From Candidatus Undinarchaeales archaeon (lineage in GTDB: Archaea > SpSt-1190 > JASMDC01): DNA of 64,000 nucleotides. Below are positions 40,491 through 64,000 of the stretch, in pieces. A program made the position numbers and the translations under genes. The stretch spans positions 1 to 64,000 of the forward strand of contig JASMDC010000015.1 in NCBI GenBank assembly GCA_030753015.1, written 5' to 3'. The notes under the pieces were generated by a model. It worked only from the letters and a program-made list of their open reading frames with translations, was not told the DNA's origin and made no database searches. Each line of letters begins with the position of its first letter. The first letter of the stretch is position 1.

Positions 40491-40733
40491 AGTATTTCCT
40501 TCCTTGCTGGGGGTGAGGGGGAAATCGCTTTCCCCTCGTAGCGAATCTGTGTCAGAGCCTACATTTAAAAGTCCTTCGCCTGCGAGATTCGTTGTTTATA
40601 AATCTGGGCTAGTTTATAAATTAACTGCGACACTTTACGGCCATATCGTCCGAGTTACACCCTAATTCCGAAGAATCTTCCGAATTTTAAATGGGACTGA
40701 ATAATGAGAGGATACGATATGAGTGACACAGTG

Positions 40734-49322: not shown

Positions 49323-50156
49323 ATGGAGACCGAGGAAATAAAACGGACCGTGAAAGGCCGCTATGGCGAATGTGCAGAGACCGGTGGCGGGGAAAAGTCC
49401 TGTTGCTGTCCAAATGCTGCCCCCACATGTGCGAGCTTTGCTACCGAGCATGGGCTTTATGGGCAGGAAGAACTCTCCTTGGTCCCGCAAGTCGCTCGTA
49501 CCCTTTCCAAGGGTTGCGGTAACCCCACCGGTTTCGCCGACCTTCGATCCGACGAAGTGGTCGTGGACCTTGGTTGTGGTGCAGGGATCGATATCATTCT
49601 TGCTGCTCATAAGATTGGGCCCGGTGGGAAAGTGATCGGAGTGGATTTTTCTGCAAAGATGATCGAGCGGGCACAGCAGGCAGTGGCCGAGGCGCGCTTG
49701 ACGGATACCATCGAGTTCCATGTCGCTGACCTGGAACGTCTTGAGCTCCCGGATGTCCTTGCCGATGTGGTGATGTCGAACTGCGTCATCAATCTCTGCC
49801 CCGATAAGGTGGCCGTGTATCGCGAAGCCTTTCGTATCCTGAAATCCGGTGGGCGCATAGCCATCTCCGATGTCGTCTTTACTGGAACAATAGACCCCAA
49901 GGTCCAGGAGCGCTTCCGATCGACCTGGGCAGGATGTCTGGGCGGATCGATCAACGAGGAGGACTATTTCGAGATCATCCGAAAGGCAGGCTTCAGACAG
50001 GTCGAGATCGTGTCCCGTCATCCATTATCTCCGGAGGAACTGGAAGCAATGGCATGTTGTCCGGGGCCGGAATTCACCCCTGCTCCTGAAAAAGAGGACC
50101 TTGCTGTGGCTCGAGGGAAAGTGACGAGCATCAAGTTCACAGCGATAAAGCCCTAG
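49323..50156 (+). CDS. arsM: Arsenite methyltransferase
   Basis: SCCC, GCGNP, VVDLGCGAGID, SNCVINLCPDK, WAGCLGG. Confidence 0.88.
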   Translation: METEEIKRTVKGRYGECAETGGGEKSCCCPNAAPTCASFATEHGLYGQEELSLVPQVARTLSKGCGNPTGFADLRSDEVVVDLGCGAGIDIILAAHKIGPGGKVIGVDFSAKMIERAQQAVAEARLTDTIEFHVADLERLELPDVLADVVMSNCVINLCPDKVAVYREAFRILKSGGRIAISDVVFTGTIDPKVQERFRSTWAGCLGGSINEEDYFEIIRKAGFRQVEIVSRHPLSPEELEAMACCPGPEFTPAPEKEDLAVARGKVTSIKFTAIKP

Positions 50157-50249
50157 ACCGGCCGATCCAGCCCATCAAGGACGCACCGGCAGCGTTAATC
50201 GATCGCACTTCGGACTTCCATCACCCTTCGGCCGATATACGGCCTACGA

Positions 50250-50672
50250 TTACTTGCTGTCCTCGAACCCTACATCGATCAGGAATCGGGCGAACTCAGT
50301 GTCGACCACCTGGAAATGGTTGATGAGCCAGTTGACCAGGAAGACGTTGATGGAGGTAGCAAGCGCCCGAGTCGCGCCCTCTTCCTGGAAGTCCTCTATC
50401 AAGAGGCCCAGGGTGCGCTTGAACTCGTCGTGCTGCTTCTTGTGGTACGTCATCCCGGGGTAGCCCAGCTCCTCCATGTGCTTCTCTTCCGTGGAGAAGT
50501 GGAAATCGGTGTAGTCGACCATAAAGTCGAGCATCTTCGTGACCTTGCCCGAACCCTGCGTCACCTTAAGGGCACTTGACAGGTTGTTGAACCGTTGTAT
50601 GAGCATCTTGTGCTGCTCATCGATCAGTTCTATTCCCACAGAGTAACTGTCGTCCCATGCGATCGTTGTCAT
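50250..50672 (-). CDS. Bacteriohemerythrin
   Basis: WDDSYSVGIELIDEQH, HFSTEE, HKKQH, WLINHFQVVD. Confidence 0.92.
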   Translation of the reverse strand: MTTIAWDDSYSVGIELIDEQHKMLIQRFNNLSSALKVTQGSGKVTKMLDFMVDYTDFHFSTEEKHMEELGYPGMTYHKKQHDEFKRTLGLLIEDFQEEGATRALATSINVFLVNWLINHFQVVDTEFARFLIDVGFEDSK

Positions 50673-50848
50673 GTCGTATTCCTCCCTAGATGCCTGTCCA
50701 CAACGAGCCTCCTGACACCCCAAGGTTTTTGTTCCTACCGAATTCCCCTCGGTCAGTTCACTGTCACATGACCGCGTACTCGAGCACGGGAGTGCCGCCG
50801 ACCGCACATGACAGTCGCACTCACGGCACCTGTTCTGCTTAGACGTGT

Positions 50849-50907
50849 CGACCCTGACGTCGTTTGAGAATCGCTAAGCGGGGCCGCGATCCGAATTCCT
50901 TTGCCGT
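50849..50907 (+). repeat. Repeat B
   Basis: CGACCCTGACGTCGTTTGAGAATCGCTAAGCGGGGCCGCGATCCGAATTC. Confidence 0.8.
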
Positions 50908-50991
50908 GAACCGAGATCAAGAACGCTCTTTGAGATCCCCTTCATAAGGTTCAAATATTTGCGTGGGATCCTAGTTGAAGAAGGTGGCTAC

Positions 50992-51168
50992 ATGATAAAG
51001 ATAATCGGTTTTGGCGGTAGCATCCTTCCTGGCTCGAACGATAAGACCCTTTCCGACGCAGAGAAATTCCTCAATAAGATCGGCCGGGAAAATCTCATCA
51101 ACATGTCGATCAATTACATCGGCACGACCGGAACGCTCCGCGTCTTCATCACATACAACGAGGAGTAG
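50992..51168 (+). CDS. Small hypothetical protein
   Basis: AAGGTGG RBS-like sequence before ATG; 58 aa. Confidence 0.5.
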   Translation: MIKIIGFGGSILPGSNDKTLSDAEKFLNKIGRENLINMSINYIGTTGTLRVFITYNEE

Positions 51169-51312
51169 CTCAAACGAGCGGGCAGTAACGCTCGAACAGG
51201 GGACGGAAGATCCAGGCAGGCTCATGAGAAGAAATAAGTATCCCCGTCACCTGACAGAGGATCCCCCCACCTTCCCCTAACCCTTATAAACCCCCCCGAA
51301 TATCCCGGAGGA

Positions 51313-52851
51313 ATGCGGGGCGTAATCAGCTCGGGGCATCCGGTCACATCCGAGGCGGGTGCGAGCGTGCTGCGCAAGGGAGGGACCGCCGTCGACGCGG
51401 CACTTGCAGCGTCCGCTGTGAGCGGAGTTACCGAGCCCGGCCTCACCAGTCTTGGGGGGGGAGGTCTTGCCGTCATCCACGAGGGAGACAGCGGCCGCAA
51501 CCGGGTCTTCGACTTCTTTGCAGACATGCCCGGCCTGGAAGGTGACGGTCCGGACCCCTCCAGTTTCAAGGAGCTGGTCGTTGACTATGAGGGTGCGCTG
51601 GAGACGTACCTGGTCGGCATGGGAACGGCAGCGCTCCCGGGCGTGCTCCCGGGTATCCTGTACATCCACGAGGAGATGGGCACGCTCCCTCTGGCAGACG
51701 TCCTTGCCCCGGCGATACGGGTCGCGCGCGATGGGGTCGTGCTCAGCGCGTTCCAGGCCAGATGCAACTACCTGTTCCGGGACCTTCTGGGCATGGGCCT
51801 GGAAAGCCGGAAGGTCTTTTTCAGGGACGGGGTGATGCTAAAGGAGGGCGAGCTCTTCACGAACCCCAATGTGGCACGGCTGCTCTCGAAGTTCGGATCA
51901 GGCGACTGGAGGCAGACGCTGGAAAACGAGTTCTACTCGCCCATCGTCAAGCACATGGAGGAGATATCCGGCCCCATCACACCTGCCGACCTCGAGCACT
52001 ACACACCCATCGAGCGCTGTCCTCTGGAGATATCGTGCATGGGCTTCGACCTGCTCACACCGCCCCCCCCGTCCACCGGTGGCCTCAGGATCGCCTTTCT
52101 GCTCAAGCTTTTAGAGCGCAACGAGCTTGCGGGCATGGACCGGACGGGCCCGGAGTACGTCGAGCTGCTCGCACAATGTCAGGCATCCACCGATGCCATG
52201 CGCAAGGGAGTTGTGGACGGCAACATCCACGACAAGAATCTTGCCGAAGAGGTGCTCTCGGAAGGCTGCCTGGACCGCTTTACCGACGATGCCATGGTCG
52301 TTGCACCGCCCCGGTCGGCGGGGAACACCACCCAGATATCGGTCACAGACGCAACGGGCACCGCCGTGTCGCTCACGACCACCACCGGCGAGAGCACGGG
52401 CTTCATGATCCCCGGCACCGGCGTGCTCTACAACAACATGCTGGGCGAGATCGACCTCAACCCCGACGGCTGCCGGGCGAACCCGGTCGGAAAAAGGCTC
52501 ACGTCCTCCATGTCGCCTTCGGTGATGCTTGCTGACGGCGAGGTCATCGGCGTCATGGGGAGCGGTGGATCGAGCAGGATCATAAGTGCCATCGTGCAGG
52601 TGTCGCTCAACCACGCGGTGTTCGGCCTCGACGCGGCAACGTCCGTGGAGTCGCCCCGAGCGCACTACGAGGGCGGGGTGCTCCAGATGGAGGCAGGCTT
52701 TCCTGCAGCCACCGTCCAGAAGCTGAAGCGCACCTTCGAGGTGAACGAGTGGGACCGTATCGACCGGTACTTCGGCGGCGTCCACATGACCACGGGGCGT
52801 ACGGGTGCCGGCGACACGCGCAGGAGCGGGCACTTCATGGCCGTGGAGTAG
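51313..52851 (+). CDS. ggt: Gamma-glutamyltransferase family protein
   Basis: GGTAVDAA, SLGGGG, PPPSTGG, NTTQIS (Thr nucleophile), SSMSPS, GSGGSSRI. Confidence 0.9.
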   Translation: MRGVISSGHPVTSEAGASVLRKGGTAVDAALAASAVSGVTEPGLTSLGGGGLAVIHEGDSGRNRVFDFFADMPGLEGDGPDPSSFKELVVDYEGALETYLVGMGTAALPGVLPGILYIHEEMGTLPLADVLAPAIRVARDGVVLSAFQARCNYLFRDLLGMGLESRKVFFRDGVMLKEGELFTNPNVARLLSKFGSGDWRQTLENEFYSPIVKHMEEISGPITPADLEHYTPIERCPLEISCMGFDLLTPPPPSTGGLRIAFLLKLLERNELAGMDRTGPEYVELLAQCQASTDAMRKGVVDGNIHDKNLAEEVLSEGCLDRFTDDAMVVAPPRSAGNTTQISVTDATGTAVSLTTTTGESTGFMIPGTGVLYNNMLGEIDLNPDGCRANPVGKRLTSSMSPSVMLADGEVIGVMGSGGSSRIISAIVQVSLNHAVFGLDAATSVESPRAHYEGGVLQMEAGFPAATVQKLKRTFEVNEWDRIDRYFGGVHMTTGRTGAGDTRRSGHFMAVE

Positions 52852-53016
52852 GGCAGGGGACGGCCTCACTTTCGCATACCTGGGGCTTCAGGGGCGATGG
52901 ACGAACGACGGCTGATCCGTCATCGCTCCAAAGATACACCATCTTGCGCCCGAGGGGCTCGTCATGGCGAGGTGACCGGGCCTATTTAATTGTTAGACAC
53001 GTGAATTTCATGCTTC

Positions 53017-54822
53017 ATGGCACCACGGATCCGACAAGGTCAAGTTAATAAAAAAATACAATTTCAAAAGAGGATCCAAGGTGATGAGAATTCTAGTCCG
53101 GTGAAAGGCACCGATCATTATGTAGTCGCTCTGTTCTTTGTGTTATCACTGGTCTTTGTCGGGCCCATTCTTAAGGGGCTGTACATGTATGGTATTCTCG
53201 ACTGGGATCAACATTTCTTCTATCACGCGGTCCCAAGGGCCACCATCATCGAACATCACCAGTTCCCATTATGGAATCCGTACCATTGTGGTGGCAACAT
53301 CCTTCTTGCCAATCCCCAATCATCCTTCTTGTCCCCGACATTCATCTTCGTCCTCCTTTTCGATGTGATACCGGGATTGAAAGTGAGGATCCTGATCCAG
53401 TACATGATCGGGTTGTACGGGATGTATATCCTGGCCCGATCGTTGGGTATGACCACTAATGGCAGCCTGTTATCCTCGAGCGTCTTTATGCTCAACGGAG
53501 CGTACGCATCCAACATCGTGGTCGGCCATACCACTTTTCTTCCTGTGGTGTATATCCCCTGGGCCTTTCATTACTTACTGAGAGGGATCGAGGACATCAG
53601 GTACATCCCTCTGTCCTCGATCGTCCTTTCCATCATGATCTTTGAGGGAGGTGTCTTTCCTTTCGTGTTCACATGCCTGTTCATGGGTGCGTTCTCGTTC
53701 TTCAAGGCGCTGCAACTCAAGAAGATAGCTCCTGCAGGAGCATTCGTCCTTGTCCTCTTTCTTACCTTCCTGCTAGCTTCCATCAAATTCCTTCCCCTTA
53801 TCGAGTTCACTTCTATGAATCCATTATCAAGGGACGTCGGTAGGGGGTATACTGTTGAGATACTGGTCAACGCACTGACCAATCCCGACCTCAACACCGT
53901 CGATCTCAATTTGAAAGTATCGGACGACCAAGTAAATTACTGGATAGAATATTATGCGTATGTCGGCGCACTACCTTTGATACTCGGTATCTTTGGCGCA
54001 TGCGTGATGCTGGGCTCAAGGTGGCCATTATTATTGACCACAGTTCTGTTCCTCATCCTCTCCTTTGGCTCGAACGAGACGCTGGATCTCTGGGGCATGA
54101 TCCATCCCTTGCCCATCTTGAGCAGCTTCCAGGTACCCAGCAGATGTATGATGATGGTCGTCTTTTCTCTGGCTCTCTACTCCGGCTGGGCGCTTTCTTG
54201 GTTAGAGGGGTACGGGGCCCATATGTTGGTGACGTGGGGAGTGCTGGTCTTTGTCATCATGGATCTGGTGCTCGTTAACGGCGCTTTGTTCGAACTGGGG
54301 TTCATTCGATATCCTCCTGCGATCCTTGGTCGTCGTAGTGATACCCTCGTTCAATGGAAGGGATGGGGACATTATGATTATTTCTTGATGAACAAAGGCC
54401 TGGTCAACTGCTATGAACGGACGCATCTCCCGATACGTGCACTTCCAGCTCAGGACGAGCAGTATAGAGGAGAGGTCTACTACAACGGGTCCATCGGGAG
54501 ACCGGAAGTCATCAGTATAACCCCGAACGAGCTACGTTACCGCGTGTCCGTCGATCGACCCACCAGACTGGTGGTCAATCAGAACTATGATCCCGGCTGG
54601 TATAGCACGGGACATGATGTGGTATCTCATGATGGATTGATATCGATCGACCTCGATCCGGATGATGAGATCGTGACCCTCTCATATCTACCGCGCTCCT
54701 TCCTCCTTGGCCAGCTGCTCTCGTTCCTTGGTCTCGTTCTTGCAGCCCTTGTGTATTATGATAGACTTCCCAATGGGGGGCTGGTGCTCGCCTCCAACGG
54801 CAGGCTCAACGACGGGATGTAG
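53017..54822 (+). CDS. YfhO-like GT-C membrane protein
   Basis: FPLWNPYHCGGNILLANPQS, YAYVG, VPSR, NQNYDPGW; lower GC. Confidence 0.75.
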   Translation: MAPRIRQGQVNKKIQFQKRIQGDENSSPVKGTDHYVVALFFVLSLVFVGPILKGLYMYGILDWDQHFFYHAVPRATIIEHHQFPLWNPYHCGGNILLANPQSSFLSPTFIFVLLFDVIPGLKVRILIQYMIGLYGMYILARSLGMTTNGSLLSSSVFMLNGAYASNIVVGHTTFLPVVYIPWAFHYLLRGIEDIRYIPLSSIVLSIMIFEGGVFPFVFTCLFMGAFSFFKALQLKKIAPAGAFVLVLFLTFLLASIKFLPLIEFTSMNPLSRDVGRGYTVEILVNALTNPDLNTVDLNLKVSDDQVNYWIEYYAYVGALPLILGIFGACVMLGSRWPLLLTTVLFLILSFGSNETLDLWGMIHPLPILSSFQVPSRCMMMVVFSLALYSGWALSWLEGYGAHMLVTWGVLVFVIMDLVLVNGALFELGFIRYPPAILGRRSDTLVQWKGWGHYDYFLMNKGLVNCYERTHLPIRALPAQDEQYRGEVYYNGSIGRPEVISITPNELRYRVSVDRPTRLVVNQNYDPGWYSTGHDVVSHDGLISIDLDPDDEIVTLSYLPRSFLLGQLLSFLGLVLAALVYYDRLPNGGLVLASNGRLNDGM

Positions 54823-54958
54823 GCGCTTGAGCGACAGCAACTTACCGCAACGATCCGGGGGCTGCTGAGCTCTCCTCTCGTTCCCGAGGATGCCCCGGCC
54901 CAAGGGAAGCTATAAAACGTGAGTGAGGAAGCCGCGAGCATAGATCGGTGGTGTAACC

Positions 54959-55564
54959 GTGGAGATAGAATACGAAGGCGTCATCAGAACGGACGACATG
55001 ATCCTCTTGGGAGTGCGACAGAAGGGTACCGGCCCCTACGAGACACAGATGACCGTCCCCGGGATGACATACGACCAAAAGACCGATAAGGCCCTGGTCT
55101 CGATCGGTTCCAGGACCGACGACGGTGAGAGCGTTACGGGCATCATCCCCCAGCTCACCGGTCCCCTCGAGGGCTATGACCATGTCTCCATCGACCAGAC
55201 CGTGGAGCTCGCATCGTACCATCCCGCCACCGGGCACATGGTCGGTCCCATGTACTGCTCGCTTGACGTGGAGACCGATCTGGCTGCGTCAGGGAATGGG
55301 GACGGATACGTCGCTCTCGCCCGGGAGCCTGCTCAGATGGATACCGTTCTCCAGGCGCTCACCATGGAGGGCATCATCCCCGACGATGTCGTCACCGCAT
55401 ATGGCACGCTCATGGACGATCCCACCGAGGGCAACTACCTGAAGCTGCTCCACCAGATCGAGGTCAACAAGGATGACATCGCCCTAGCACGTCTCCACAT
55501 AGAGTGGTACATAGATGATGGGGACATCACGGACCTTGGCTTCGCACCCGGAGACCTCTCCTAG
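54959..55564 (+). CDS. Acidic hypothetical protein
   Basis: TATA-like CTATAAAA near 54910, GGTGGTG before the GTG start. Confidence 0.6.
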   Translation: MEIEYEGVIRTDDMILLGVRQKGTGPYETQMTVPGMTYDQKTDKALVSIGSRTDDGESVTGIIPQLTGPLEGYDHVSIDQTVELASYHPATGHMVGPMYCSLDVETDLAASGNGDGYVALAREPAQMDTVLQALTMEGIIPDDVVTAYGTLMDDPTEGNYLKLLHQIEVNKDDIALARLHIEWYIDDGDITDLGFAPGDLS

Positions 55565-55593
55565 GTCCGCTTTGAGCATAGGATCTGTTGCCC

Positions 55594-55686
55594 GTGCATC
55601 GGAAGTCTGACAAGATCATCGGCGTCAACGTCCTGGCCCCGGGGCGTCCGACCTGGTACACGAGGGTGCCATTATGGATTCGTGAT
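55594..55686 (+). pseudogene. Fragment of a pyridine nucleotide-disulfide oxidoreductase dimerisation domain (MerA/Lpd-like)
   Basis: VHRKSDKIIGVNVLAP then, after a frameshift, ASDLVHEGAIM. Confidence 0.55.
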
Positions 55687-55690
55687 ACGA

Positions 55691-55705
55691 GTGCGCCGGT
55701 CGGGA
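55691..55705 (-). repeat. Repeat A (tRNA 3'-end-like), copy 1
   Basis: GTGCGCCGGTCGGGA on + strand. Confidence 0.8.
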
Positions 55706-55841
55706 ACAAAGCCCACATTCAGGGGCAAATGAGAACGGGAACGGTCGCGGGGGGGCGCACTCCGCTGGACCTTGACCAACGGGCCCCGGGCATTCGATCG
55801 ATGGAATATGCATATATACTATAACCACCATTATACTAACT

Positions 55842-57074
55842 ATGATTATTGTTAGGGGGGAGGCAGAGGAGATCAAGAAGATACACAAGTGGTTGCTCGT
55901 GTACGGAAGGCGGAAGACGGGCAAGACCTTCCTCCTCAGGAACCTCACGGACTACGACGAGTACTACTTCGTGAAAAGGGACAGGGGGATACTCACCGAC
56001 TCAGGTGCCCTCTCGTACGAGACCTTCCTGGAGCTGTTCAAGCGCCAGCTCAACGACGGAGGGACGGTGATCGTGGACGAGTTCCACCGCCTGGGCGAAG
56101 GGTTCCAGGATATCCTCCACTTCCTTCCGAAGAAGGGGAAAGTGATACTCGTATCGTCCACGCTGCACCTATCGAGGAAGCTGGTGGGATCGCACTCCCC
56201 CCTGCTCGGTGTGGTCGCCGAGTTCCAAATGCCGCTCCTGCGACTCTTCGACGTGCTGAGCTCCCTGCACGGTGATGGTCTCTCCAAGAAGGAGCTCGTC
56301 GAGACTGCCGTGCTCCTGCGCGAGCCCATAACCATCGACCATTACACACCTGGCGAGGGAGCTGTATCCACGTTCACGAGGGTGATGACGAGCACGAAGT
56401 ACCTCGTACCGGCGCTCATCGGCGAGATATTCACAGAGGAGGACCGCTCCCTCTCAGCGGTCTACGAGGGCGTCCTGCGTGCTATAGCCGGCGGGAAGTG
56501 CGTATCGAGCGAGATATCGAGCTTCCTCTTCTCGCACGGACTGATCAAGAAGGACGATCCCAGCCTCCTCCAGCAGTACCTCAACAATCTCGTGTCGTTC
56601 GGCCTCCTGAAGCGGTTGAAGGTGTACAACAAGCGGCGTTACGTCTACATGCATACCTCGCCGCTGGTCTATCTCTACTTCTACGCTGACGAGAAGTACA
56701 ACCTCTCCGAGATCGAGGCTGGACCCGAGGTGATCTCCCGCATCATCGCCGAGCTCTATCCGCGCATCATCGAGGGAGCGGTGCGCGAGCTCTTGGCCGA
56801 GCACTTCGGGCTGGTGGAGTCCGTCGTCCGGGAGAAGGATTTTGACATCGACGCCTACCTGCTGCGGTTCAAGACGCCCGAAGTGGCCGTGGAGGTCAAG
56901 TGGAAGGACAAGGTCTCATCCAAGGACGTGCGCAAGGCCGAGGATACCCTGTCACGCGTCGAAGCGAAGCGCAGGATCCTGTTCGTCCCGGACAAGAAAA
57001 AGGTCGAGTGCGGGAGCGACCTCGAGATCATGGACGTAGGCGACGTGCTGCAGGGACGTGCTTCTGCGGAGTAG
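55842..57074 (+). CDS. Archaeal ATPase (P-loop, wHTH, C-terminal PD-(D/E)XK-like domain)
   Basis: YGRRKTGKT, IVDEFH, FDIDAYL...AVEVKW. Confidence 0.88.
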   Translation: MIIVRGEAEEIKKIHKWLLVYGRRKTGKTFLLRNLTDYDEYYFVKRDRGILTDSGALSYETFLELFKRQLNDGGTVIVDEFHRLGEGFQDILHFLPKKGKVILVSSTLHLSRKLVGSHSPLLGVVAEFQMPLLRLFDVLSSLHGDGLSKKELVETAVLLREPITIDHYTPGEGAVSTFTRVMTSTKYLVPALIGEIFTEEDRSLSAVYEGVLRAIAGGKCVSSEISSFLFSHGLIKKDDPSLLQQYLNNLVSFGLLKRLKVYNKRRYVYMHTSPLVYLYFYADEKYNLSEIEAGPEVISRIIAELYPRIIEGAVRELLAEHFGLVESVVREKDFDIDAYLLRFKTPEVAVEVKWKDKVSSKDVRKAEDTLSRVEAKRRILFVPDKKKVECGSDLEIMDVGDVLQGRASAE

Positions 57075-57087
57075 ATTCATAACAAAA

Positions 57088-57106
57088 GTGCGCCGGTAGG
57101 GACCCG
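57088..57106 (-). repeat. Repeat A, copy 2
   Basis: GTGCGCCGGTAGGGACCCG. Confidence 0.75.
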
Positions 57107-57251
57107 AGCGCGCATCAGGGGCACTCATCCTGTGCATACGCACGTAGAACAAGCGTATGGACTATGATCGGAACAGATATCGCCCGAGCGGACCTGTCGG
57201 AGATATACTTTTATTGACTTGGTTCGATCCACCGTACAGAGCGTGATTACC

Positions 57252-58667
57252 ATGGTATCCCCGTCCACCAAGATCGGCGACCTCATCGAGGAGCATCCCT
57301 TCCTTGTCGACTTCCTGCCCACCCTCTCTCCCCGGTACGAGGCCTTGCGCAGCCCCACCATGCGAGCCACTATGGGAAAGGTGGCCACCGTAGAGATGGC
57401 CGCCAAGATGGGAGGACTGGAGGTGGACGAGCTTGTCACCGCCATCGAGAGCGAGATCGCCCGACACGTCGAGGGCGACGCGTCCGCCCCGACCGAAGAG
57501 GAGCTTGCGCGACGCAAGGAGGTCCTCAAGGGCATCATCCGCGACATCCACGCGGGCGCCGACATCGAGGAGCTTAAGGTCCGGTTCGCCTCCCTCATCA
57601 AGGGCGTGGGCCCTGCTGAGATCTCGGCCGTGGAGCAGGCGCTCATCGCCGATGGCATGCCCGCAGAGGAGATCAAGCGCCTGTGCGACGTCCACGTGGA
57701 GGTGTTCAAGAGCTCGCTCGAGATGAAGAAGCCACCATCCACCCCGCCAGGCCACCCGGTCCACACCTACATGCAGGAGAACCAGGCAAGTGCCGACATC
57801 ATGCGCAAGATCGTAGATCGATTGGAGGGCCTGGAGGACGCGCTACCCGAGGTCAAGGGCCTTCTCGACGAGCTGGCCAAGATCGACATCCACTACACCC
57901 GAAAGGAGAACCAGCTCTTCCCCGCCCTCGAGCGCCACGGTATCACGGGGCCCTCGCAGGTCATGTGGGCCATCCACGACGATATCAGGGCGCTGGTGAA
58001 ACAGGTGCGGGAGGCACTGGATGGCGAGGACGTCGCAAGCGCCGCCACCCTCCTCCGGGACCTTGTTGGGACCATCGGCGACATGGTCTACAAGGAGGAG
58101 CACATCCTCTACCCGGCTGCGCTGGAAGCCCTGACGGAGGAGGACTGGGTGCGCGTGCGGCAGGGCGAGGAGGAGATCGGGTACGCATGGGTGACACCTG
58201 CGGCCCCCTGGCCACCCGAGGGGACCGAGGTAGCGGTCTCTTCTGAAGGGACCTCGGCCCTCTCCATGGACACCGGGGCGCTCACCCACGAGCAGCTCAA
58301 CCTCCTGCTCAAGCACCTTCCCTTCGACGTGACCTTCGTGAGCGAGAACGACGAGGTGCTGTACTACTCGGACACTCCAGAGCGGATCTTCCCCCGGTCG
58401 GCAGGGGTCATCGGGCGAAAGGTGCAGAACTGCCACCCGCCCAAGAGCGTCCACGCAGTCACTCGCATCCTGGACGAGTTCAGGGCCGGGACGCGGGACG
58501 TCGCCGAGTTCTGGATCCATCTCCACGGAAAGTTCCTCTACATCCGGTACTTCGCCGTGCGCGACGGTAAGGGCACCTATCGCGGATGCCTCGAGGTCAT
58601 GCAGGAGATATCCCGCATCTCCAAACTCGAAGGGGACAAGCGGCTGCTGGACGACAGCACTGCCTAG
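57252..58667 (+). CDS. DUF1858/DUF438-hemerythrin-PAS protein
   Basis: LCDVH, PGHPVHT, HYTRKENQLFP, VMWAIHD, KEEHIL, GRKVQNCHPPKS. Confidence 0.9.
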   Translation: MVSPSTKIGDLIEEHPFLVDFLPTLSPRYEALRSPTMRATMGKVATVEMAAKMGGLEVDELVTAIESEIARHVEGDASAPTEEELARRKEVLKGIIRDIHAGADIEELKVRFASLIKGVGPAEISAVEQALIADGMPAEEIKRLCDVHVEVFKSSLEMKKPPSTPPGHPVHTYMQENQASADIMRKIVDRLEGLEDALPEVKGLLDELAKIDIHYTRKENQLFPALERHGITGPSQVMWAIHDDIRALVKQVREALDGEDVASAATLLRDLVGTIGDMVYKEEHILYPAALEALTEEDWVRVRQGEEEIGYAWVTPAAPWPPEGTEVAVSSEGTSALSMDTGALTHEQLNLLLKHLPFDVTFVSENDEVLYYSDTPERIFPRSAGVIGRKVQNCHPPKSVHAVTRILDEFRAGTRDVAEFWIHLHGKFLYIRYFAVRDGKGTYRGCLEVMQEISRISKLEGDKRLLDDSTA

Positions 58668-58701
58668 GACGGAAGGTACCAGAGACGTTTCGCAAGAGAC
58701 A

Positions 58702-58786
58702 GGTGCGCCGGTCGGGACCCGTTCTCGTGTACGAACAGGCACAGAACGCCAGATGACCTTTTGGGACATCCTTAAAAGATCGGACC
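58702..58786 (-). repeat. Repeat A, copy 3 with extended homology to copy 5
   Basis: About 85 bp alignable with 60226-60315. Confidence 0.88.
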
Positions 58787-58870
58787 GCAGAGGCCTTCAA
58801 GTATGTCGAGAAAGGGCACAAGAAGGGAAGTGTCGTTATGACCGTGGTGGATGATGACAAGGGATCATAG
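58784..58870 (+). pseudogene. C-terminal fragment of a Zn-ADH/quinone-oxidoreductase (MDR) gene
   Basis: TAEAFKYVEKGHKKGSVVMTV...*. Confidence 0.8.
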
Positions 58871-58926
58871 GTACGTAATTTAGTTTCATGGCACTTAATA
58901 GCCAACAAGCGACATAGCTCACATGG

Positions 58927-59565
58927 GTGAACAAAACGGATGAACTATCTGCAAGATGCAAGAACGAGATACACACCTTTTTCGGCCTGGCCGTCGTTAA
59001 TCTTGTGATCGCTGCATTGATCCTGGCCTTCGGGATATCTACAGGTGTCACGCGGCTCATGGCCTTTTCCAGGTCAGGAGAGATCGAACTGATGTCCCTA
59101 TTATTGATCGGTGCGGGCCTTGCTGCAGCAATTGCTGGACTGTATTGGCTGGTAAAGACCGCCGAGATCCTCGAAGGTGTCGAAAAGATCGACTCGGACT
59201 GGGAAAAGATCACACAACATGACGATCAGGAACAGGTCACGGGTGTTCTTGTTCAAATGATAGCTCATTATCGAAAGAACCAGCCGGTCATCGACAGAAT
59301 GACCGTTCTTGGACGGATAGTCGGGATCCTTTTCCTTGTTTCCGGATCTCTGAGCCTGCTGGATTCGGGAAGGACACTGCTTGCATCCGGCATGGTCAAT
59401 GAAGGCATGTTCCAGCTTGCAGGTGCCATAGCGGTATTTAGCGTTGGGATCGGAAGTCTTCTCATCGCAAGATACTTCGAACGGTATTCCGGGATCTGGG
59501 TCGTCCGACTAAAGGAAGAAGATAACATCCAGGAAGCGCTCACCGAACTGTTGGAGGCCAGCTAA
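58927..59565 (+). CDS. Hypothetical 4-TM membrane protein
   Basis: Four hydrophobic helices; lower GC. Confidence 0.7.
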   Translation: MNKTDELSARCKNEIHTFFGLAVVNLVIAALILAFGISTGVTRLMAFSRSGEIELMSLLLIGAGLAAAIAGLYWLVKTAEILEGVEKIDSDWEKITQHDDQEQVTGVLVQMIAHYRKNQPVIDRMTVLGRIVGILFLVSGSLSLLDSGRTLLASGMVNEGMFQLAGAIAVFSVGIGSLLIARYFERYSGIWVVRLKEEDNIQEALTELLEAS

Positions 59566-59566
59566 C

Positions 59567-59842
59567 GTGAAAGGGCGACGTACCAATTACGAGATCTATT
59601 GGGAGATCCTGGTCTTCTGCCGTGAACCCAGATCGTTCACCAGTATTATCAATCGTTGCGATCTGAACTCAAAGATCGGGCAGCAGCATATCCAGTTCCT
59701 CACGGACAAGAAGTTCCTTTCGATCGAGACCCTCGAGAAGAAGAGATCGTACACCACTACAGAACAAGCTCACGAATATATCAGCCTTTTTTCACAACTA
59801 TATCGAAAGATGTATGACAGTGCCCCGGAATTCAAACTGTGA
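59567..59842 (+). CDS. Archaeal winged-helix regulator
   Basis: RRTNYEIYWEIL...TSIINRCDLN...YTTTEQA. Confidence 0.78.
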   Translation: MKGRRTNYEIYWEILVFCREPRSFTSIINRCDLNSKIGQQHIQFLTDKKFLSIETLEKKRSYTTTEQAHEYISLFSQLYRKMYDSAPEFKL

Positions 59843-59883
59843 ATGCTCGCTAAGGACCCGTTAGCATACGATCAACATGAGAA

Positions 59884-59899
59884 TGGTGCGCCGGTCGGG
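59884..59899 (-). repeat. Repeat A, copy 4
   Basis: TGGTGCGCCGGTCGGG. Confidence 0.8.
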
Positions 59900-60224
59900 G
59901 ACACAACCTTTATAGGTTCGTGAGGTCTCGCCATCCATTGTCCTAACGGACCTGTTGTGGGGACATTGCCGGCCTTCGCTGGATTGAACACCAGTGTCTC
60001 CACAACTGCTTTCCCCCATCCTTGCATATAATCCCACCAGCGAAGGCTGCGGATCGATAGAAGGGATGCCGATCCTACAAGATTCCCTGCTGTTGAGCAA
60101 GATAACGAGGGGCGTCTCCAGTATCCCATATCCCCCTGTTCATCGATAGGACCTGCCTACGGGATGTGGATCGAACCCTTTGCCACCCACCGTATTTTCC
60201 TTGAGCGAACACCGAGAGAAGGGA

Positions 60225-60315
60225 TGGTGCGCCGGTCGGGACCTGGACCCGTTCTTTTTTCTGACAGGCCCTGAACGCCAGATGACCGTTTGGGATATTG
60301 TTAAAAGAACGGACC
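60225..60315 (-). repeat. Repeat A, copy 5 (most complete tRNA T-arm/acceptor/CCA mimic)
   Basis: Reverse complement of 60225-60251 is CGGGTCCAGGTCCCGACCGGCGCACCA. Confidence 0.88.
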
Positions 60316-60336
60316 ATCGACTCTGGACGGATGATC

Positions 60337-61068
60337 ATGAAAGCCATCCTGCACACAAGATACGGACCTGCCGACGAGCTTGAGCTCACAGAGGTCCCCA
60401 GACCGGTCCCCGGGGACAACGAGGTCTCGATCAAGGTGCATGCGACGGCAGTGACGACGGGCGACTGCAACGTCCGGAACCTCACGTTCGCGCCCAGAGA
60501 TTTCAAGATCCCTGTGCGGTTGTTCCTGGGGATAAGAACACCTCGGATCAAGATACTTGGGAACGAGGTGGCCGGAGTGATCGAGGCCGTCGGCAAGGAC
60601 GTCACGCGGTTCGCGGTCGGTGACAAGGTCTTCGGGACCCCCGGCGCTGCCATGGGCGCCCATGCCGAGTACCTGTGCATGCCCGAGGACGGAGTGCTGG
60701 CGATAAGACCTGACCCGATGAGCTGGGAGGAGGCCGAGGTAGTCATCGCCGAGCACGACGGTGCGCCCGTCGGGTTCGCCCTCTTCTTCCATAACTACTC
60801 GACGTTCCTGGGACGGCACGGCATCTACATCGAGGACCTGTACGTCCGGCCCGAGCATCGAGGGAAGGGGTGCGGGAAACAGCTGCTCGCCCATCTTGCC
60901 GACCTTGCCGTCGAGCGGGGGTGCGGGCGATTGGAGTGGTGGGTCCTCGACGTCAACCGGCCTGCCATCGACTTCTACGGGTCTCTGGGAGCGCAGGCGA
61001 TGGACGAGTGGACCGTGTACAGGCTGACCGGAAAGGAGCTGGGGCGGCTGGCCGCAGGCGGGCGGTGA
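60337..61068 (+). pseudogene. In-frame chimera: MDR/Zn-ADH N-terminal domain fused to a GNAT C-terminal part
   Basis: MKAILHTRYGP...GAHAEYL...MSWEEA joined at about 60735 to EVVIAE...FFHNYSTFLG...YIEDLYVRPEHRGKG. Confidence 0.85.
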
Positions 61069-61075
61069 GCAGTCG

Positions 61076-61549
61076 CTACGAGAAGCTGCCGTACACCGTG
61101 ATCGGCGTCGTCACGTTCTCGAACCCGCGGTCCTCCAGCGCTGCCGCCAGGTCGTGGAACGCCACCTCGTCCATCTTCGAGCTCCGGAACTCGACCGACA
61201 CGTTCACCTTGTCAGAACTGAAGGTGCCGCCGCGCTCGTACCGGATGGTGCCATGAGCGACCGTGTGGATGTAATGGTCGTCCGGGGGATCGGCCGGCTC
61301 GAACTTGAAGTTCATGTAGATGGGATCGCGCTCGTCGTGGCCGACCTCCAGGTCGAGGCCCAGGTCCTTGTTGGCCAGCTCGAGAGCGAACTCGGCGTCA
61401 CGGTAGCCCTTGTTGATCTCCTGCTCGTCCATGCCCTTGCCGAACAGGCCAAGGAACTTGCCTGCGTCCATGGTGAAGTCGGCGTACCCGTCGCCGTGGA
61501 TCATGTTGACGGCCTCGCCGCCGTACTCGGTGAGCGCGCAGTATCCCAT
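61076..61549 (-). CDS. Acidic hypothetical protein
   Basis: Host-like codon usage; TATA-like element near 61588. Confidence 0.6.
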   Translation of the reverse strand: MGYCALTEYGGEAVNMIHGDGYADFTMDAGKFLGLFGKGMDEQEINKGYRDAEFALELANKDLGLDLEVGHDERDPIYMNFKFEPADPPDDHYIHTVAHGTIRYERGGTFSSDKVNVSVEFRSSKMDEVAFHDLAAALEDRGFENVTTPITVYGSFS

Positions 61550-61618
61550 AAGATTACCGTCCTTACTGACCGCGCGCTGGATCCCGGTATTTAAGGTTTG
61601 CCCGGGGGTGACGGACGC

Positions 61619-62353
61619 TCACGCCAGCTCGTAGATGTGCGTGACGGGGTCCGAGTAGACAAGCCAGAACCCATCGATACGCGCCCCGACGAAGGCATCC
61701 CCCAGGACCGTCCCCTTGACGGGCCCCGGTTCACGGCCTGCTGCGATGAAGATGGCGTCGGCCTTGGCAGCGTCCTCGGCATGGACGTACAGGTACCCTG
61801 CGCCGTGGACCTTCATCACCGTTCGTGTATCGGCGGGATCGTAGGCGAGCAGTGCATCTGCCACGTCCCGGACGAGCGCGTGGGGCACGCAGTCGGGGCA
61901 GATGATGTCGTCTGCGGGCATCCCCAGGTACTTGGATACCGTCACCGGCAACAGCTCCCTCGAGGGTGCGTCGATCACCGGCTCGCGCTCGCCGTAGGCG
62001 CGGATGGCATGACCGTAGTCCCACCATGAAAGGACGTGCGCGTCCGGCGGCGTGTTCCTGTGCAGCCAGTCGAGGCCGGGCCGCATGGAGCGCGGGAGCG
62101 TCTGGTCGGGGATGATGGTGCGGTTGCCCCTGGTGTACCGCATAAGGGTGATCTCTCGCGCGGCCGTGCCGTGGCCGACCTCCTCGGTGACAAGCTCCAG
62201 GTCGTACCTGCCGCCGATACGCTCGACGTTCTCATCGATATTCCCGGGGCCGTCTGGATTCCCGTACCCCGTTCCGTCCAAGTAGTTGATGGAGATGATC
62301 GCACAAATGATCAGGATCCCGAGGCCCGTCAGCACGTACCGGGTGTCCGTCAT
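61619..62353 (-). CDS. Stand-alone oligosaccharyltransferase (AglB/STT3) C-terminal-domain protein
   Basis: LDWLHRNTPPDAHVLSWWDYGHAI; only one N-terminal TM helix. Confidence 0.78.
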   Translation of the reverse strand: MTDTRYVLTGLGILIICAIISINYLDGTGYGNPDGPGNIDENVERIGGRYDLELVTEEVGHGTAAREITLMRYTRGNRTIIPDQTLPRSMRPGLDWLHRNTPPDAHVLSWWDYGHAIRAYGEREPVIDAPSRELLPVTVSKYLGMPADDIICPDCVPHALVRDVADALLAYDPADTRTVMKVHGAGYLYVHAEDAAKADAIFIAAGREPGPVKGTVLGDAFVGARIDGFWLVYSDPVTHIYELA

Positions 62354-62415
62354 CCTGCAATTGATTCAGGCGTGGATGCCATAAATACGTGCTGAGCGCA
62401 AAAAAGGCCTTAAAA

Positions 62416-63117
62416 TCAGGCCTTTTGGGGCTTACTTTCAACGTTCACGACGCTCCCGACGCCCACCTGGCGGAAGGTGCGGGGGAACAGCTCGGGGAAC
62501 CGGTCCGGCTCCCGAGTGCAGTGGCACGGGGCCACCAGAGAGAGGTTTTCCAGCTGCCCGGGGTCCTTTGCGTCATGCATCCCGCCCAGGATGCCCCTGA
62601 CCCGGCCGTGTAGGCTCGCTGCATCCAGCACCGGGGCAAAGCCGGGATGACAGCACCCGGTGACTGCCAGAACGCCGGTCCCGGCGTCGACGACCAGCGC
62701 CTGCTCTTTCAGTTCACCGCCCAGAGCCGGTGTCGTGCGCACGCCCGGCACCACCCTGCTGCCGTCCTCGGTCCCCGTCACCGAAACGTCGGCGCGGTTG
62801 GACAGCTCGATGCGCAGGTGTCGGGGGATGCCCTCGGGAACGTACAGCGGCACATCCCCCCTGGCCTCGAGGAAGCGTGCGAGACCCCCCAGATGGTCCC
62901 AGTGCGGGTGCGAGAGCACCACGGCATCGACCGACCGGATATCCACTCTCAGCTCTGCCATGTTGTGCAGGAGAAGTCCGCCGTCGAAGCCAGCGTCGAA
63001 CAGTACCTTTCCGCCGGGCACCTCTGCGAGGCAGGAAAAGCCCCAGCCGCAGCGCAGCGAGGTCGAAGCACCTGGCGCGAGCCGGTTGTCGTACAGCACC
63101 GTCAGGCGCGCGGTCAT
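62416..63117 (-). CDS. MBL-fold metallo-hydrolase
   Basis: TVLYDN, WGFS, LFDAG, SHPHWDHLGG, TGCCHPG, GGMH, PCHCT. Confidence 0.88.
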   Translation of the reverse strand: MTARLTVLYDNRLAPGASTSLRCGWGFSCLAEVPGGKVLFDAGFDGGLLLHNMAELRVDIRSVDAVVLSHPHWDHLGGLARFLEARGDVPLYVPEGIPRHLRIELSNRADVSVTGTEDGSRVVPGVRTTPALGGELKEQALVVDAGTGVLAVTGCCHPGFAPVLDAASLHGRVRGILGGMHDAKDPGQLENLSLVAPCHCTREPDRFPELFPRTFRQVGVGSVVNVESKPQKA

Positions 63118-63129
63118 AGCAGCCGTCCC

Positions 63130-64000
63130 TCACCGCATGTAGAAGAGGTCTTCTGCTGGCTCCTCCTTGATCTGGGGAGCAGCGAGCGCCTTCTGTACGA
63201 GCTCGTAGAACTTCTTGACCTCCTTGGTAAGAGAGGGGTGCACCTTCTCGCGGGCCTTCTCGAACTCCGCCAGGGAGACCTGCTTGGCCTCCATGTCCTT
63301 GCGGAGGGCAAAGATGGCCGACTCGCGACAGATGGCCTCCAGGTCGCTGCCAACGCAGTTCTCGGTCTCCTTGGCCAGCTTCTTGAGGTTCACGTCCTTT
63401 GCCAGCGGCATGTTCTTGGTGTGCACCTTCAGGATCTCGAGACGCGCTGCCTCGTCGGGAGCGCCAACAAGGATGTGGCGGTCGAACCGGCCCGCGCGCA
63501 TGAGCCCGCGGTCGATGATGTCCGGTCGGTTCGTGGCGCCGATGATGACCACGTCCTGGAGGTCCTCCAGCCCGTCGATCTCGGTGAGCATCTGGTTGAC
63601 GACCCGTTCCTCGGCCTTGTGCGAGCCCTCTCCCCCGCGGGAGGACGCGATGGCGTCCAGCTCGTCGAAGAACACCACCGTGGGCGCTACCTGGCGAGCC
63701 TTGCGGAAGATCTCCCGGATGGCCTTCTCGGATTCGCCCAGCCACTTGGAGAGGACCTCGGGGCCCTTGACCGAGATGAAGTTGGCCTCGCTCTCGTTGG
63801 ACACGGCCTTTGCGAGCAGGGTCTTTCCGGTGCCCGGCGGTCCGTAGAGGAGGATGCCCGTGGGCGGTCTGATGCCCAATCGGTCGAACGCGGCCTTGTT
63901 CTTTAGCGGCCATTCCACGGCCTCGACCAGCTCCTGCTTGATGTCAGCGCAGCCGCCGATGTCGTCCCACGTGATGTTCGGTACCTCGACCAGCACCTCG
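63130..64000 (-). CDS. cdc48: CDC48/VCP AAA ATPase, C-terminal (D2) part
   Basis: [47 protein letters not shown]. Confidence 0.95.

Follow-up and report, generated by a model that had tools for sequence, protein, structure and literature searches.

Accretion in tandem at tRNA genes is well known; the elements normally described are large and have an integrase. An identity block that starts from a symmetric tRNA loop (the T-loop or the anticodon loop), next to an arm that imitates the stem, was reportedly described by Williams in 2002 as a defining feature of att scars. The CIMEs (cis-mobilizable elements) of streptococci are flanked by att sites, lack recombination genes and stand in tandem at a tRNA gene or another att site. 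They are bacterial, are described as deletion derivatives of ICEs and IMEs and are thought to be mobilised by an integrase acting in trans. Integrons are recognised by IntI and attI beside the array and by attC sites, whose imperfect palindromes form hairpins.

Excerpts of four studies (PMC8371274, PMC6563490, PMC9897764, PMC4383910) describe tandem integrative elements at tRNA genes of bacteria and archaea, where displaced 3' fragments are attR scars, and report that archaeal elements can lose the integrase after integration. The smallest cryptic element in the excerpt of PMC6563490 measures 2.6 kb and has an integrase, and the Thermococcaceae examples in that of PMC9897764 measure 9-23 kb. 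Excerpts of two further papers report integrons in Archaea (10.1101/2022.02.06.479319) and a pTN3-type integrase of Thermococcales that drives recombination between tRNA-gene copies (PMC5495485). Here we describe a related locus in the window, the first 64,000 nucleotides of contig C24 (JASMDC010000015.1) of a Candidatus Undinarchaeales archaeon. A preliminary description had noticed in it an array of repeats that resemble a tRNA 3' end.

The repeat array and its cargo

The five repeats, described as sharing one orientation, were all recovered when the whole window was searched with GTGCGCCGGTMGGG. They matched the plus strand with 0 mismatches at 55691, 57088, 58703, 59886 and 60227; the earlier starts of copies 3-5 (58702, 59884 and 60225) had counted a preceding G or TG and meant the identical copies. 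A single match with one mismatch was found at 60761. The six matches compare with a mean of 0.19 and a maximum of three in 100 dinucleotide-preserving shuffles, none of which reached six. Successive copies 1-5 are spaced by 1397, 1615, 1183 and 341 bp. Three copies had been placed shortly past a stop codon, and the gaps measured 13 nt (57074 to 57088), 35 nt (58667 to 58703) and 43 nt (59842 to 59886). The look-alike at 60761..60774 was rejected as a sixth att scar, since it is a chance resemblance within GNAT coding sequence, where the native GNAT motif DGAPVG is encoded.

In the tRNA sense, the copies lie on the minus strand. The core of copy 1 (55691..55704, no mismatch) and the flank on its right, up to about 55765, form a type A module. 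Copy 2 (57088..57101) has A instead of C at position 11 and is followed, as far as about 57150, by a type A flank in degenerate form. Copy 3 (58702..58786) combines a core matching 16 of 16 positions with a type B flank, which contains the TATA-like box TTAAAAGA and then directly abuts a remnant of an ADH gene. Copy 4 (59885..60020) has a 15/16 core and a type C module with a TATA-like box and a 15-bp hairpin (z = -2.2). Copy 5 (60226..60315) has a 16/16 core with CCA, the T-arm mimic CGGGTCCAGGTCCCGA and a type B flank, which lies with a promoter region upstream of the ADH start. The organism encodes the archaeal TBP. Flank homology between copies begins at the core in every case. About 75 nt long, the type A flank forms a discrete module that recurs in six copies (55691 and 57087 in the window, C11:92754, C11:91265, C61:17108 and C22:40534) with different cargo directly after each, and it looks more like a functional site than a random remnant.

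The repeats delimit small gene-sized modules, as had been proposed; the first three contain the cargo named before. Unit 1 encodes an AAA_14-type ATPase (E 3e-7) with a weak Mrr_cat-like C-terminus (55842..57074, plus strand) and unit 2 a protein with domain matches to DUF1858, DUF438, hemerythrin and PAS_10 (57252..58667, plus strand). Unit 3 has, beside the ADH remnant, two genes (58927..59842, plus strand; GC content about 50% against about 60% around), one for a membrane protein of 212 aa and one for an HTH_45 winged-helix protein of 91 aa. Unit 4 contains no gene. To the left, the variable region continues (52852..55690, plus strand) with a 601-aa membrane protein of about 47% GC and a 201-aa ORF, and no recognisable core was found at its left edge (52.85-53.0 kb).

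The remnant beside copy 3 (58778..58870, plus strand) comprises about the last 23 codons of ADH and a tail, the remaining gene being deleted. It matched residues 284-306 of the ADH of a sister species with 61% identity (tblastn, E 0.001), and the DNA was 82% identical to the sister over 58783-58847. Copy 5 is followed by an in-frame ADH/GNAT chimera (60338..61068, plus strand) of about 134 N-terminal ADH codons and the GNAT C-terminus. That this chimera is real was borne out by matches to ADH_N (residues 39-136) and Acetyltransf_1 (residues 143-231) and by alignment to the sister's separate full ADH and GNAT, which placed the junction within microhomology at about 60727-60738. The fusion is a microhomology deletion. 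The flanks of copies 3 and 5 (repeat D4) are 87% identical over 52 nt, and what one copy retains of a single ADH gene complements what the other retains. On the left, their flanks are unrelated. Both copies go back to one duplicated core-promoter-ADH unit and are homologous from the core onward.

Parent tRNA genes, related loci and populations

Two intact tRNA-Gly genes elsewhere in the genome, tRNA-Gly(TCC) at C11:93606-93683 and tRNA-Gly(GCC) at C22:42906-42982, end in the reverse complement of the motif. The earlier guess that tRNA-Gly is the parent was therefore correct. Both genes end in ...CTCGGGTTCAAATCCCGACCGGCGCACCA, and the five window copies represent the last 14-27 bases of a tRNA-Gly gene, matching 14-16 positions of the 16-mer GGTGCGCCGGTCGGGA. 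The parent had been noted as absent from the window, and indeed no tRNA was found there, in the remainder of contig C24 or, in the sister genome, at the corresponding syntenic position.

At up to 2 mismatches, the 16-mer had 18 matches in the genome versus four for the reversed control: the two tRNA-Gly genes, nine fragments, one tRNA-Glu gene, the GNAT look-alike and five scattered matches. All nine fragments carry recognisable flank families. They occupy four loci, on the window contig, beside the two tRNA-Gly genes on C11 and C22 and, with one fragment, on C61. Outside the window locus, three of the four fragments adjoin tRNA-Gly genes in the same orientation, and the fourth stands solitary on C61. 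On C11, the cores at 91265 and 92754 precede that of tRNA-Gly(TCC) at 93607, all co-oriented, and on C22 the core at 40534 likewise precedes that of tRNA-Gly(GCC) at 42907. The core mismatches on C11 increase away from the tRNA, from 0 to 2 to no recognisable core. Fragments in direct orientation downstream of an intact tRNA are thus present on C11 and C22, but not in the window array.

The identity of the fragments starts at the boundary of T-loop and T-stem, that is with the 3' strand of the T-stem. It spans 14-18 nt and is followed by T-arm mimics. Degenerate T-stem and T-loop mimics flank copies 1 and 5 and the C61 fragment, as in copy 5, where CGGGTCCAGGTCCCGA imitates CGGGTTCAAATCCCGA of the tRNA. 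We read this start and the mimics as the mark of tyrosine-integrase att scars, rather than of MITEs or attC sites.

About 10 att-bounded units were tallied at the four loci in the two sister genomes. They measure 0.3-2.4 kb, or at most 1.6 kb after a 1,705-bp IS is subtracted, and mostly hold one gene. The annotated cargo genes all run in one direction, against the sense of the tRNA and towards it; in five cases the core lies 3-43 nt 3' of the preceding stop codon. The miscellaneous cargo includes a HicB-like antitoxin, and a single-gene ATPase unit of comparable kind was found at tRNA-Ser. Pfam scans of the unit ORFs detected no integrase or integrase remnant in the units. Matches to PF00589 were confined to five places on C31, C53, C76 and C88, with none on C24. 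This agrees with the earlier remark that no integrase lies within or near the array, and a tyrosine recombinase next to the motif, for which a search had been proposed, was not found. The XerA/IntI-like genes on C31 scored 220.4 bits on TIGR02249, under the cut-off of 265, and C88 carries a truncated integrase. No serine recombinase and no SSV/pTN3-type integrase (PF16795) were found in the genome.

The sister genome G001, 99% complete, represents the sole sister species compared. Unit content differed between the two species at every comparable locus. Copy 4 with 130 nt of flank was 89% identical at the sister's syntenic site, where the core is mutated to GGTGCGCCGGCCGGGA and a second decayed core lies at 530 bp from the copy 4 orthologue. 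The type C flank was conserved to the same degree as the surrounding coding genes. A degenerate homologue of the copy 5 flank was found upstream of the sister's intact ADH, probably the orthologue of copy 5 at the matching locus. Part of the window array is older than the split of the species, with cores decaying in the sister. The AAA_14-type ATPase had no match in the sister genome and the hemerythrin-PAS gene was not found there; the 601-aa membrane protein and the 201-aa ORF were absent from its syntenic region. Beside ArgZ/tRNA-Gly(TCC), the units had turned over completely. A 103-aa gene, 90% identical between the species, stands in a core-bounded unit by tRNA-Gly(GCC) in one and by ArgZ in the other. 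Since the arms of its two copies are unrelated on both sides, they are not one mobile unit.

The locus was present in marine metagenome runs of 13 studies. One independent study contributed a contig of 4,595 nt that contained copies 1-4 with 0 differences. A comparison of cassette order among strains or MAGs and a search for circularised repeat-to-repeat units had been suggested as checks. Copies 1-4 kept their order, and no excision or shuffling, circular junction, empty site, reshuffled order or core-using variant was seen in the four metagenome runs. Their sole structural polymorphism was a 1,580-bp deletion (60021..61600, joint 60020 to 61601; runs X4 and X13) of copy 5, the chimera and a 157-aa ORF, which used 1-nt microhomology and not the cores. 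The module patterns were found in none of the public collections scanned.

Origin of the array

We consider it probable that the repeats are displaced tRNA-Gly 3' ends, scars left by serial site-specific accretion and later reshaped by duplication and deletion. The cores are identical to the tRNA 3' end, and stacks of the same kind stand beside both intact tRNA-Gly genes. The enzyme, the order of events and the origin of the stack at a locus with no tRNA are inferred. A tyrosine-type integrase crossing over at the T-loop would leave each displaced 3' end of tRNA-Gly(TCC/GCC). Each event would add one or more cargo genes behind an arm from the element side, which contains a T-arm mimic and a promoter-like box. 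Units would accumulate in a single orientation. The cargo looks foreign from its low-GC patches and from the ATPase and hemerythrin-PAS genes not found in the sister. The core-promoter-ADH unit would then have been duplicated into copies 3 and 5 by a crossover at the core; ADH would have been largely lost from one of them, and the other would have been fused to GNAT by the microhomology deletion. A former tRNA-Gly copy may have been lost from the locus, or the stack may have arisen by integration at a secondary site or by core-to-core translocation. Several observations speak against such scars. Eroded elements of 5-50 kb should leave some integrase remnants, and there are none in the units; plain decay predicts neither a size limit of 2.4 kb nor co-oriented cargo. 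The window array and the syntenic sister locus lack a tRNA, the left edge of the variable region lacks a core, and the six type A modules resemble a functional site.

We regard an active cassette system as possible though doubtful. Small circles with no integrase, one att site and one or two genes would be moved by a recombinase in trans, inserting into and excising from tRNA-Gly-type sites, with the tRNA 3' end in the role of attI. Such a gene-capture system of the lineage, likewise a tentative proposal, would use mostly one-gene circles with a tRNA-Gly core and a conserved arm of about 75 nt, inserted one after another into tRNA-Gly-type sites, with tRNA-Ser and tRNA-Leu as further possible targets. 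It would be an independently arisen integron analogue in which a tRNA gene replaces attI and whose arrays turn over between sister species. The small size of the units, their co-oriented cargo, the absence of recombinase genes and the cores close behind stop codons fit this, as do the discrete type A module with its varied cargo, the turnover beside ArgZ/tRNA-Gly(TCC), the two locations of the 103-aa gene, the ATPase unit at tRNA-Ser and the duplication in copies 3 and 5, which has its boundary at the core. The multi-copy XerA/IntI-like genes and the truncated integrase on C88 are candidates for the trans recombinase. However, no recombinase is linked to any array, neither circles nor empty sites nor reshuffling were seen, copies 1-4 were unchanged in the independent contig, and the only variant ignored the cores. 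The cores decay in the sister, the 103-aa gene copies do not form one mobile unit and the module patterns did not appear in public collections. The uniformly small, co-oriented, fast-turnover units at four loci lend some support to the earlier idea of small cassettes mobilised in trans, but no movement was seen.

A regulatory or RNA-processing signal or a MITE-like repeat, with incidental likeness to tRNA-Gly, is very improbable. The copies are intergenic, just past stops and before promoter-like boxes, and the well conserved type C flank has a stable hairpin. Against this stand the 14-18 nt of tRNA identity that extend into T-arm mimics, and a motif antisense to the tRNA on the mRNA strand. 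The repeats shared only a 6-bp helix without covariation (fold z-scores -0.24 to -2.3, no common fold), and no Rfam family matched at E <=1. MITEs were rejected, as no terminal inverted repeats were found on the repeats examined and the nine fragments cluster at four loci, two of them by tRNA-Gly; this distribution, with three of the four fragments outside the window adjoining tRNA-Gly co-oriented and one solitary, largely refutes the whole explanation, including the dispersed MITE that had been named as an alternative. Even less credible is a primer-binding site at which tRNA-Gly would prime reverse transcription of the upstream mRNA into 'retro-cassettes'. As in a retroviral PBS, TGG on the plus strand precedes a stretch complementary to the tRNA 3' end, and the genes, which run towards the tRNA, stop shortly before the motif. 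But RVT_1 had no match in the 98.9%-complete genome, the likeness continues beyond 18 nt into the T-arm mimic, and TGG is missing in three of the five copies.

Between the two readings first offered, the eroded and rearranged tandem stack fits better than the integron-like array: part of the array predates the sister split and its cores decay in the sister, copies 3 and 5 are duplicates, and no excision or shuffling was seen in the four metagenome runs. An integron proper is not supported, as there is no IntI or attI beside the array and the repeats have no imperfect palindrome of the attC kind in common.

Comparison with known systems

Here every unit is small and without integrase and carries co-oriented cargo, across about 10 units, four loci and two genomes. 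If the units arrived small, they represent cassette-type gene gain that current island finders would overlook, and some of the hypervariable 'dark matter' in archaeal genomes could have this origin. If they are relics only, the locus is a worked example of how att scars persist, serve as crossover sites and end up far from a tRNA.

The stacks resemble Islander-type and archaeal accreted elements in that the far border of each insert repeats the tRNA 3' end directly, in their co-orientation and in their foreign cargo. They differ in that accreted elements, in the excerpts cited above, measure kb to tens of kb and usually have an integrase, and in that the window stack lacks the tRNA. Like CIMEs, the units are att-bounded, recombinase-less and in tandem, with movement in trans only a candidate, but for the archaeal units no parent element is known. 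With integrons they share co-oriented, mostly one-gene units of miscellaneous cargo between recombination sites, and the tRNA 3' end would be the single privileged entry point for new units; unlike integrons, they have tRNA-derived repeats and their own promoter-like boxes, and no adjacent IntI/attI or attC palindrome. Although the PF16795 integrase of the Thermococcales case was not found in this genome, pTN3-type recombination, as the excerpt presents it, offers a route by which core-core recombination could move or duplicate segments and strand fragments away from a tRNA.

The tRNA-Gly 3'-end repeats, their flanks and their cargo

When the window was scanned with the pattern GTGCGCCGGTMGGG, it matched without mismatch at 55691, 57088, 58703, 59886 and 60227 (copies 1 to 5), all on the + strand, and once more with one mismatch at 60761. 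These six matches compare with a mean of 0.19 in 100 dinucleotide-preserving shuffles, so that the five same-orientation repeats of the preliminary description are borne out. The distances between successive copies are 1397, 1615, 1183 and 341 bp. As had also been stated, the window holds no intact tRNA: ARAGORN detected none there nor in the rest of the contig (12.8 kb), and an Rfam search of 50000-64000 at permissive E-values returned nothing at an E of 1 or less. The locus is found at near identity in marine/seawater metagenome runs of 13 studies. The organism is an archaeon, since its genome encodes TBP and the TBP model matched only the archaeal ones among the control genomes. The eight TBP-domain matches make up four two-repeat genes (on contigs C44, C48, C53 and C65), a high number of paralogues.

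The whole assembly (117 contigs, 3.85 Mb) was then searched for tRNAs and for the repeat core. Two genes, tRNA-Gly(TCC) at C11:93606-93683 and tRNA-Gly(GCC) at C22:42906-42982, end in CTCGGGTTCAAATCCCGACCGGCGCACCA, the exact reverse complement of the motif, and the parent that had been guessed to be a tRNA-Gly is thus present in the genome. The acceptor stem of tRNA-Gly(CCC) differs from that of the motif. The 16-mer GGTGCGCCGGTCGGGA had 18 genome matches at up to 2 mismatches, compared with 4 for the reversed control; they are the 2 tRNA-Gly genes, 9 fragments, 1 tRNA-Glu gene, the look-alike at 60760 and 5 scattered matches. Five of the nine fragments are the window copies, and the others lie at C11:92754, C11:91265, C22:40534 and C61:17108. 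Those on C11 and C22 point the same way as their tRNA-Gly, at distances of 853 and 2342 bp on C11 and 2373 bp on C22. Among the 36 tRNAs, tRNA-Gly has the most extra 3'-end copies. For the other tRNA 3' ends, no single 1-mismatch match by itself exceeded the reversed-pattern controls (0-6 hits), and only 0-mismatch copies on the same contig and strand were kept. Such exact nearby copies were observed for tRNA-Leu (C31, 2.7 kb) and tRNA-Ser (C65, 1.65 kb).

In every fragment, the tRNA identity begins at the 3' strand of the T-stem and reaches the discriminator base, and in copies 4 and 5 it extends through the CCA. The tRNA-5' side is non-tRNA sequence that often mimics a T-arm, as in copy 5 with CGGGTCCAGGTCCCGA compared to CGGGTTCAAATCCCGA in the tRNA; the C61 fragment has retained TCAAATCCCGA. 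With tyrosine integrases that cross over in the T-loop, an identity starting at the T-stem 3' strand next to a T-arm-like flank is expected. The arms adjoining the cores belong to three families. Type A (~75 nt) occurs in six copies, at window copies 1 and 2, twice on C11, and on C22 and C61. Type B, with a TTAAAAGA box, adjoins copies 3 and 5 (87% identical over 52 nt), and type C adjoins copy 4. Members of a family are homologous from the core onwards, and their flanks on the other side of it are unrelated. Searching with an nhmmer profile of type A brought back the six known copies and, beyond them, only weak core-only matches. The type A arm pattern had no match in viral, genome and metagenome contig collections, nor a 27-mer of the type C module in metagenome contigs, collections that may omit this genome or very near ones. 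No terminal inverted repeats were found around the copies.

The type C module is noncoding (window 59885-60020, corresponding to G001:C16:77008-77138 in the sister species G001) and 89% identical between the species, which makes it no less conserved than the neighbouring genes at 78-91%. It carries a TATA-like box and a 15-bp hairpin, whose stem differs between the species at three positions, all of them wobble-compatible on the + strand only. The module could represent a small RNA, or else a recombination site. An ORF across copy 4 (59872-60129, - strand) was considered as the split N-terminus of an SSV-type integrase and rejected: synonymous and non-synonymous changes between the species are about equal, the frame is shifted close to the core, a start codon is missing from the sister copy and PF16795 has no match in the genome.

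The cargo of the units, the DNA bounded by cores, was annotated with Pfam. Unit 1 encodes an AAA_14-type ATPase (55842-57074), unit 2 a DUF1858-DUF438-hemerythrin-PAS_10 protein (57252-58667) and unit 3 a membrane protein (58927-59565) and an HTH_45 protein (59567-59842). After copy 5, a single ORF (60338-61068) joins an ADH_N to a GNAT domain, showing that the ADH/GNAT chimera described earlier is real. The C11 units carry a CMAS-like methyltransferase and a HicB-like antitoxin. In the C22 unit (C22:40534-42907), which adjoins tRNA-Gly(GCC), a 103-aa membrane-protein gene is split by a 1,705-bp IS with a DDE transposase (DDE_Tnp_1, 524 aa); the IS has imperfect inverted ends, and the TCGGA of the gene is present at both of its borders. 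The C65 unit (C65:5622-7344) contains a single AAA_14/DUF4143 ATPase gene, with intact tRNA-Ser(GCT) on one side and an exact fragment of that tRNA's 3' end on the other. Its layout is that of the tRNA-Gly units, and the contigs with paralogues of its ATPase (C39, C90) stop close to the paralogue. Every annotated cargo gene lies on the strand opposite to the tRNA sense, and in five cases the gap from stop codon to core is 3-43 nt.

No recombinase was found in any unit, and PF00589 matched only on C31 (twice), C76, C53 and C88, in agreement with the missing integrase of the preliminary description. The C88 gene is cut off by the contig end. The C31-type genes scored 224.7 bits on an archaeal XerA/integron-integrase model (cut-off 220) and 220.4 bits on the integron integrase model, under the cut-off of 265. 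A multi-copy tyrosine recombinase with a conserved N-terminal extension of ~90 aa is located at C31:1-2571, C76:975-1991 and C53:13556-14062, comprising two tandem copies at a contig start, a copy with a TAG stop inside the gene and a remnant; its appearance is that of a repeated mobile element. Searches with models that included PF16795 and RVT_1 detected no SSV-type integrase, reverse transcriptase or serine recombinase in the genome, and a PBS/reverse-transcription reading of the repeats was rejected for lack of an RVT_1 match. Upstream of the array region, the window has a DDE_Tnp_1 transposase gene (500 aa, 46807-48309) with low-GC patches around it at 48-51 kb.

Copies 3 and 5, ADH and GNAT (REARRANGEMENTS)

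At copy 3, core and type B flank lead straight into the last ~23 codons of ADH. At copy 5, core and flank of the same type precede ADH codons 1 to ~134, and at an EEA/KEA microhomology (~60727-60738) the reading frame passes without a shift into GNAT, beginning around its codon 60. Because the same type B flank precedes complementary pieces of ADH, copies 3 and 5 are judged from their sequence to be duplicates of one ancestral unit and not two separate insertions. The core was most likely the crossover point of this duplication, since the homology between the two copies starts there. The core-like sequence at 60761 codes for DGAPVG, a GNAT motif, ~20 nt inside the GNAT-derived sequence; as native GNAT coding sequence with a chance likeness, it was ruled out as a sixth scar.

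The locus in the sister species and in metagenomes

The locus was looked for in 40 relatives and is shared by one of them alone, G001, a 99% complete genome of the same genus. The synteny continues through a gamma-glutamyltranspeptidase-like (GGT-like) gene (window 50906-52851, G001:C16:81740-79813) and is back at the GNAT gene (window 60728-64000, G001:C16:71036-63381). The 7.9 kb in between in the window and the 8.8 kb in G001 are mostly unrelated. Three features are common to both: copy 4 with 130 nt of flank (89% identity, the G001 core being mutated to GGTGCGCCGGCCGGGA), the type B flank region upstream of ADH, and the ADH C-terminal remnant at window 58778-58846. In G001, the type B region lies directly after the GGT stop codon, beside a core-like stretch of poor preservation, and a complete ADH comes after it; a second decayed core is found 530 bp beyond the core of the copy 4 orthologue. 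Because of these common features, part of the array is taken to be older than the species split, and its cores are decaying in G001. Neither the AAA_14 ATPase nor the hemerythrin-PAS gene was detected in the 99% complete G001, and both therefore look like later additions.

The units adjoining ArgZ and tRNA-Gly(TCC) are completely different in the two genomes. The 103-aa gene (~90% identical) sits in a core-bounded unit at tRNA-Gly(GCC) in the genome of the window and at ArgZ in G001, and its flanks on both sides are unrelated. All exact cores of G001 (4/4) lie at contig ends, and the FMN_red-side unit may be present there too. A search of 52.85-55.69 kb for a decayed core at the left border of the variable region gave no match at up to 4 mismatches of 16. 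The left flank of copy 5 aligned locally with that of the second decayed core of G001 at a score of 26, which is within the range of shuffled sequences (mean 22, maximum 35). Window ~61616 is another breakpoint of the hypervariable region. The syntenic G001:C16:66590-67855 encodes three tandem paralogues of ~130 aa with signal anchors, each behind a ACATAAAAA box and none of them in the window.

Population variation was analysed by comparing metagenome contigs from four runs of four studies with window 50900-62500; the uncovered stretches in runs X12, X13 and X20 carry no information on the array. In X4, from an independent study, one 4,595-nt contig over 55427-60021 (copies 1-4) showed zero differences. 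A joint from 60020 to 61601 was observed in two independent runs, at a depth of 7.4 in X4 and 3.6 in X13, and the reference form was bridged in X12 and X4. This 1,580-bp deletion (window 60021-61600) takes out copy 5, the chimera and a 157-aa ORF, with a microhomology of 1 nt only. Its joint is at the right edge of the type C module, 6 nt past the end of the G001 homology (60014). In one of its two runs the deletion allele was deeper than the reference form.

Origin of the array

The repeats are probably att scars of site-specific recombination that targets tRNA-Gly. They are stacked beside both tRNA-Gly genes and at the tRNA-less hypervariable locus of the window, where one duplication, most likely at a core, and three or more deletions have remodelled the array. 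For the window, a third tRNA-Gly copy may have been lost, integration may have used a secondary site, or exchange may have occurred from core to core. Such a core-to-core exchange would be of the kind reported for the integrase-driven recombination of Thermococcales.

Plain erosion leaves unexplained why the ~ten units are uniformly small, why not one of them retains an integrase remnant and why their cargo shares one orientation. For this reason we keep alive a rather unlikely alternative, that the units are small integrase-less cassettes moved in trans, for which the discrete arm module also speaks. However, no joint at the cores was present among the contigs of the four runs, although contigs cannot reveal rare circles. 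The earlier interpretation is supported in part: tRNA-derived repeats that delimit small units without a recombinase were confirmed, but membership among the integrons was not: no common attC-type hairpin was found among the repeats, which rules out an attC-like folding, and the array is not an integron.

A literature search returned no description of cassette-sized arrays of such kind, which is not proof of absence. As far as the sources go, tandem integration, integrase loss and tRNA fragments are described for elements of at least 2.6 kb that usually bear an integrase (PMC6563490, PMC8371274, PMC9897764), whereas the units in the window are cassette-sized and have none. The array is classed here as a variant of accretion at tRNA sites.
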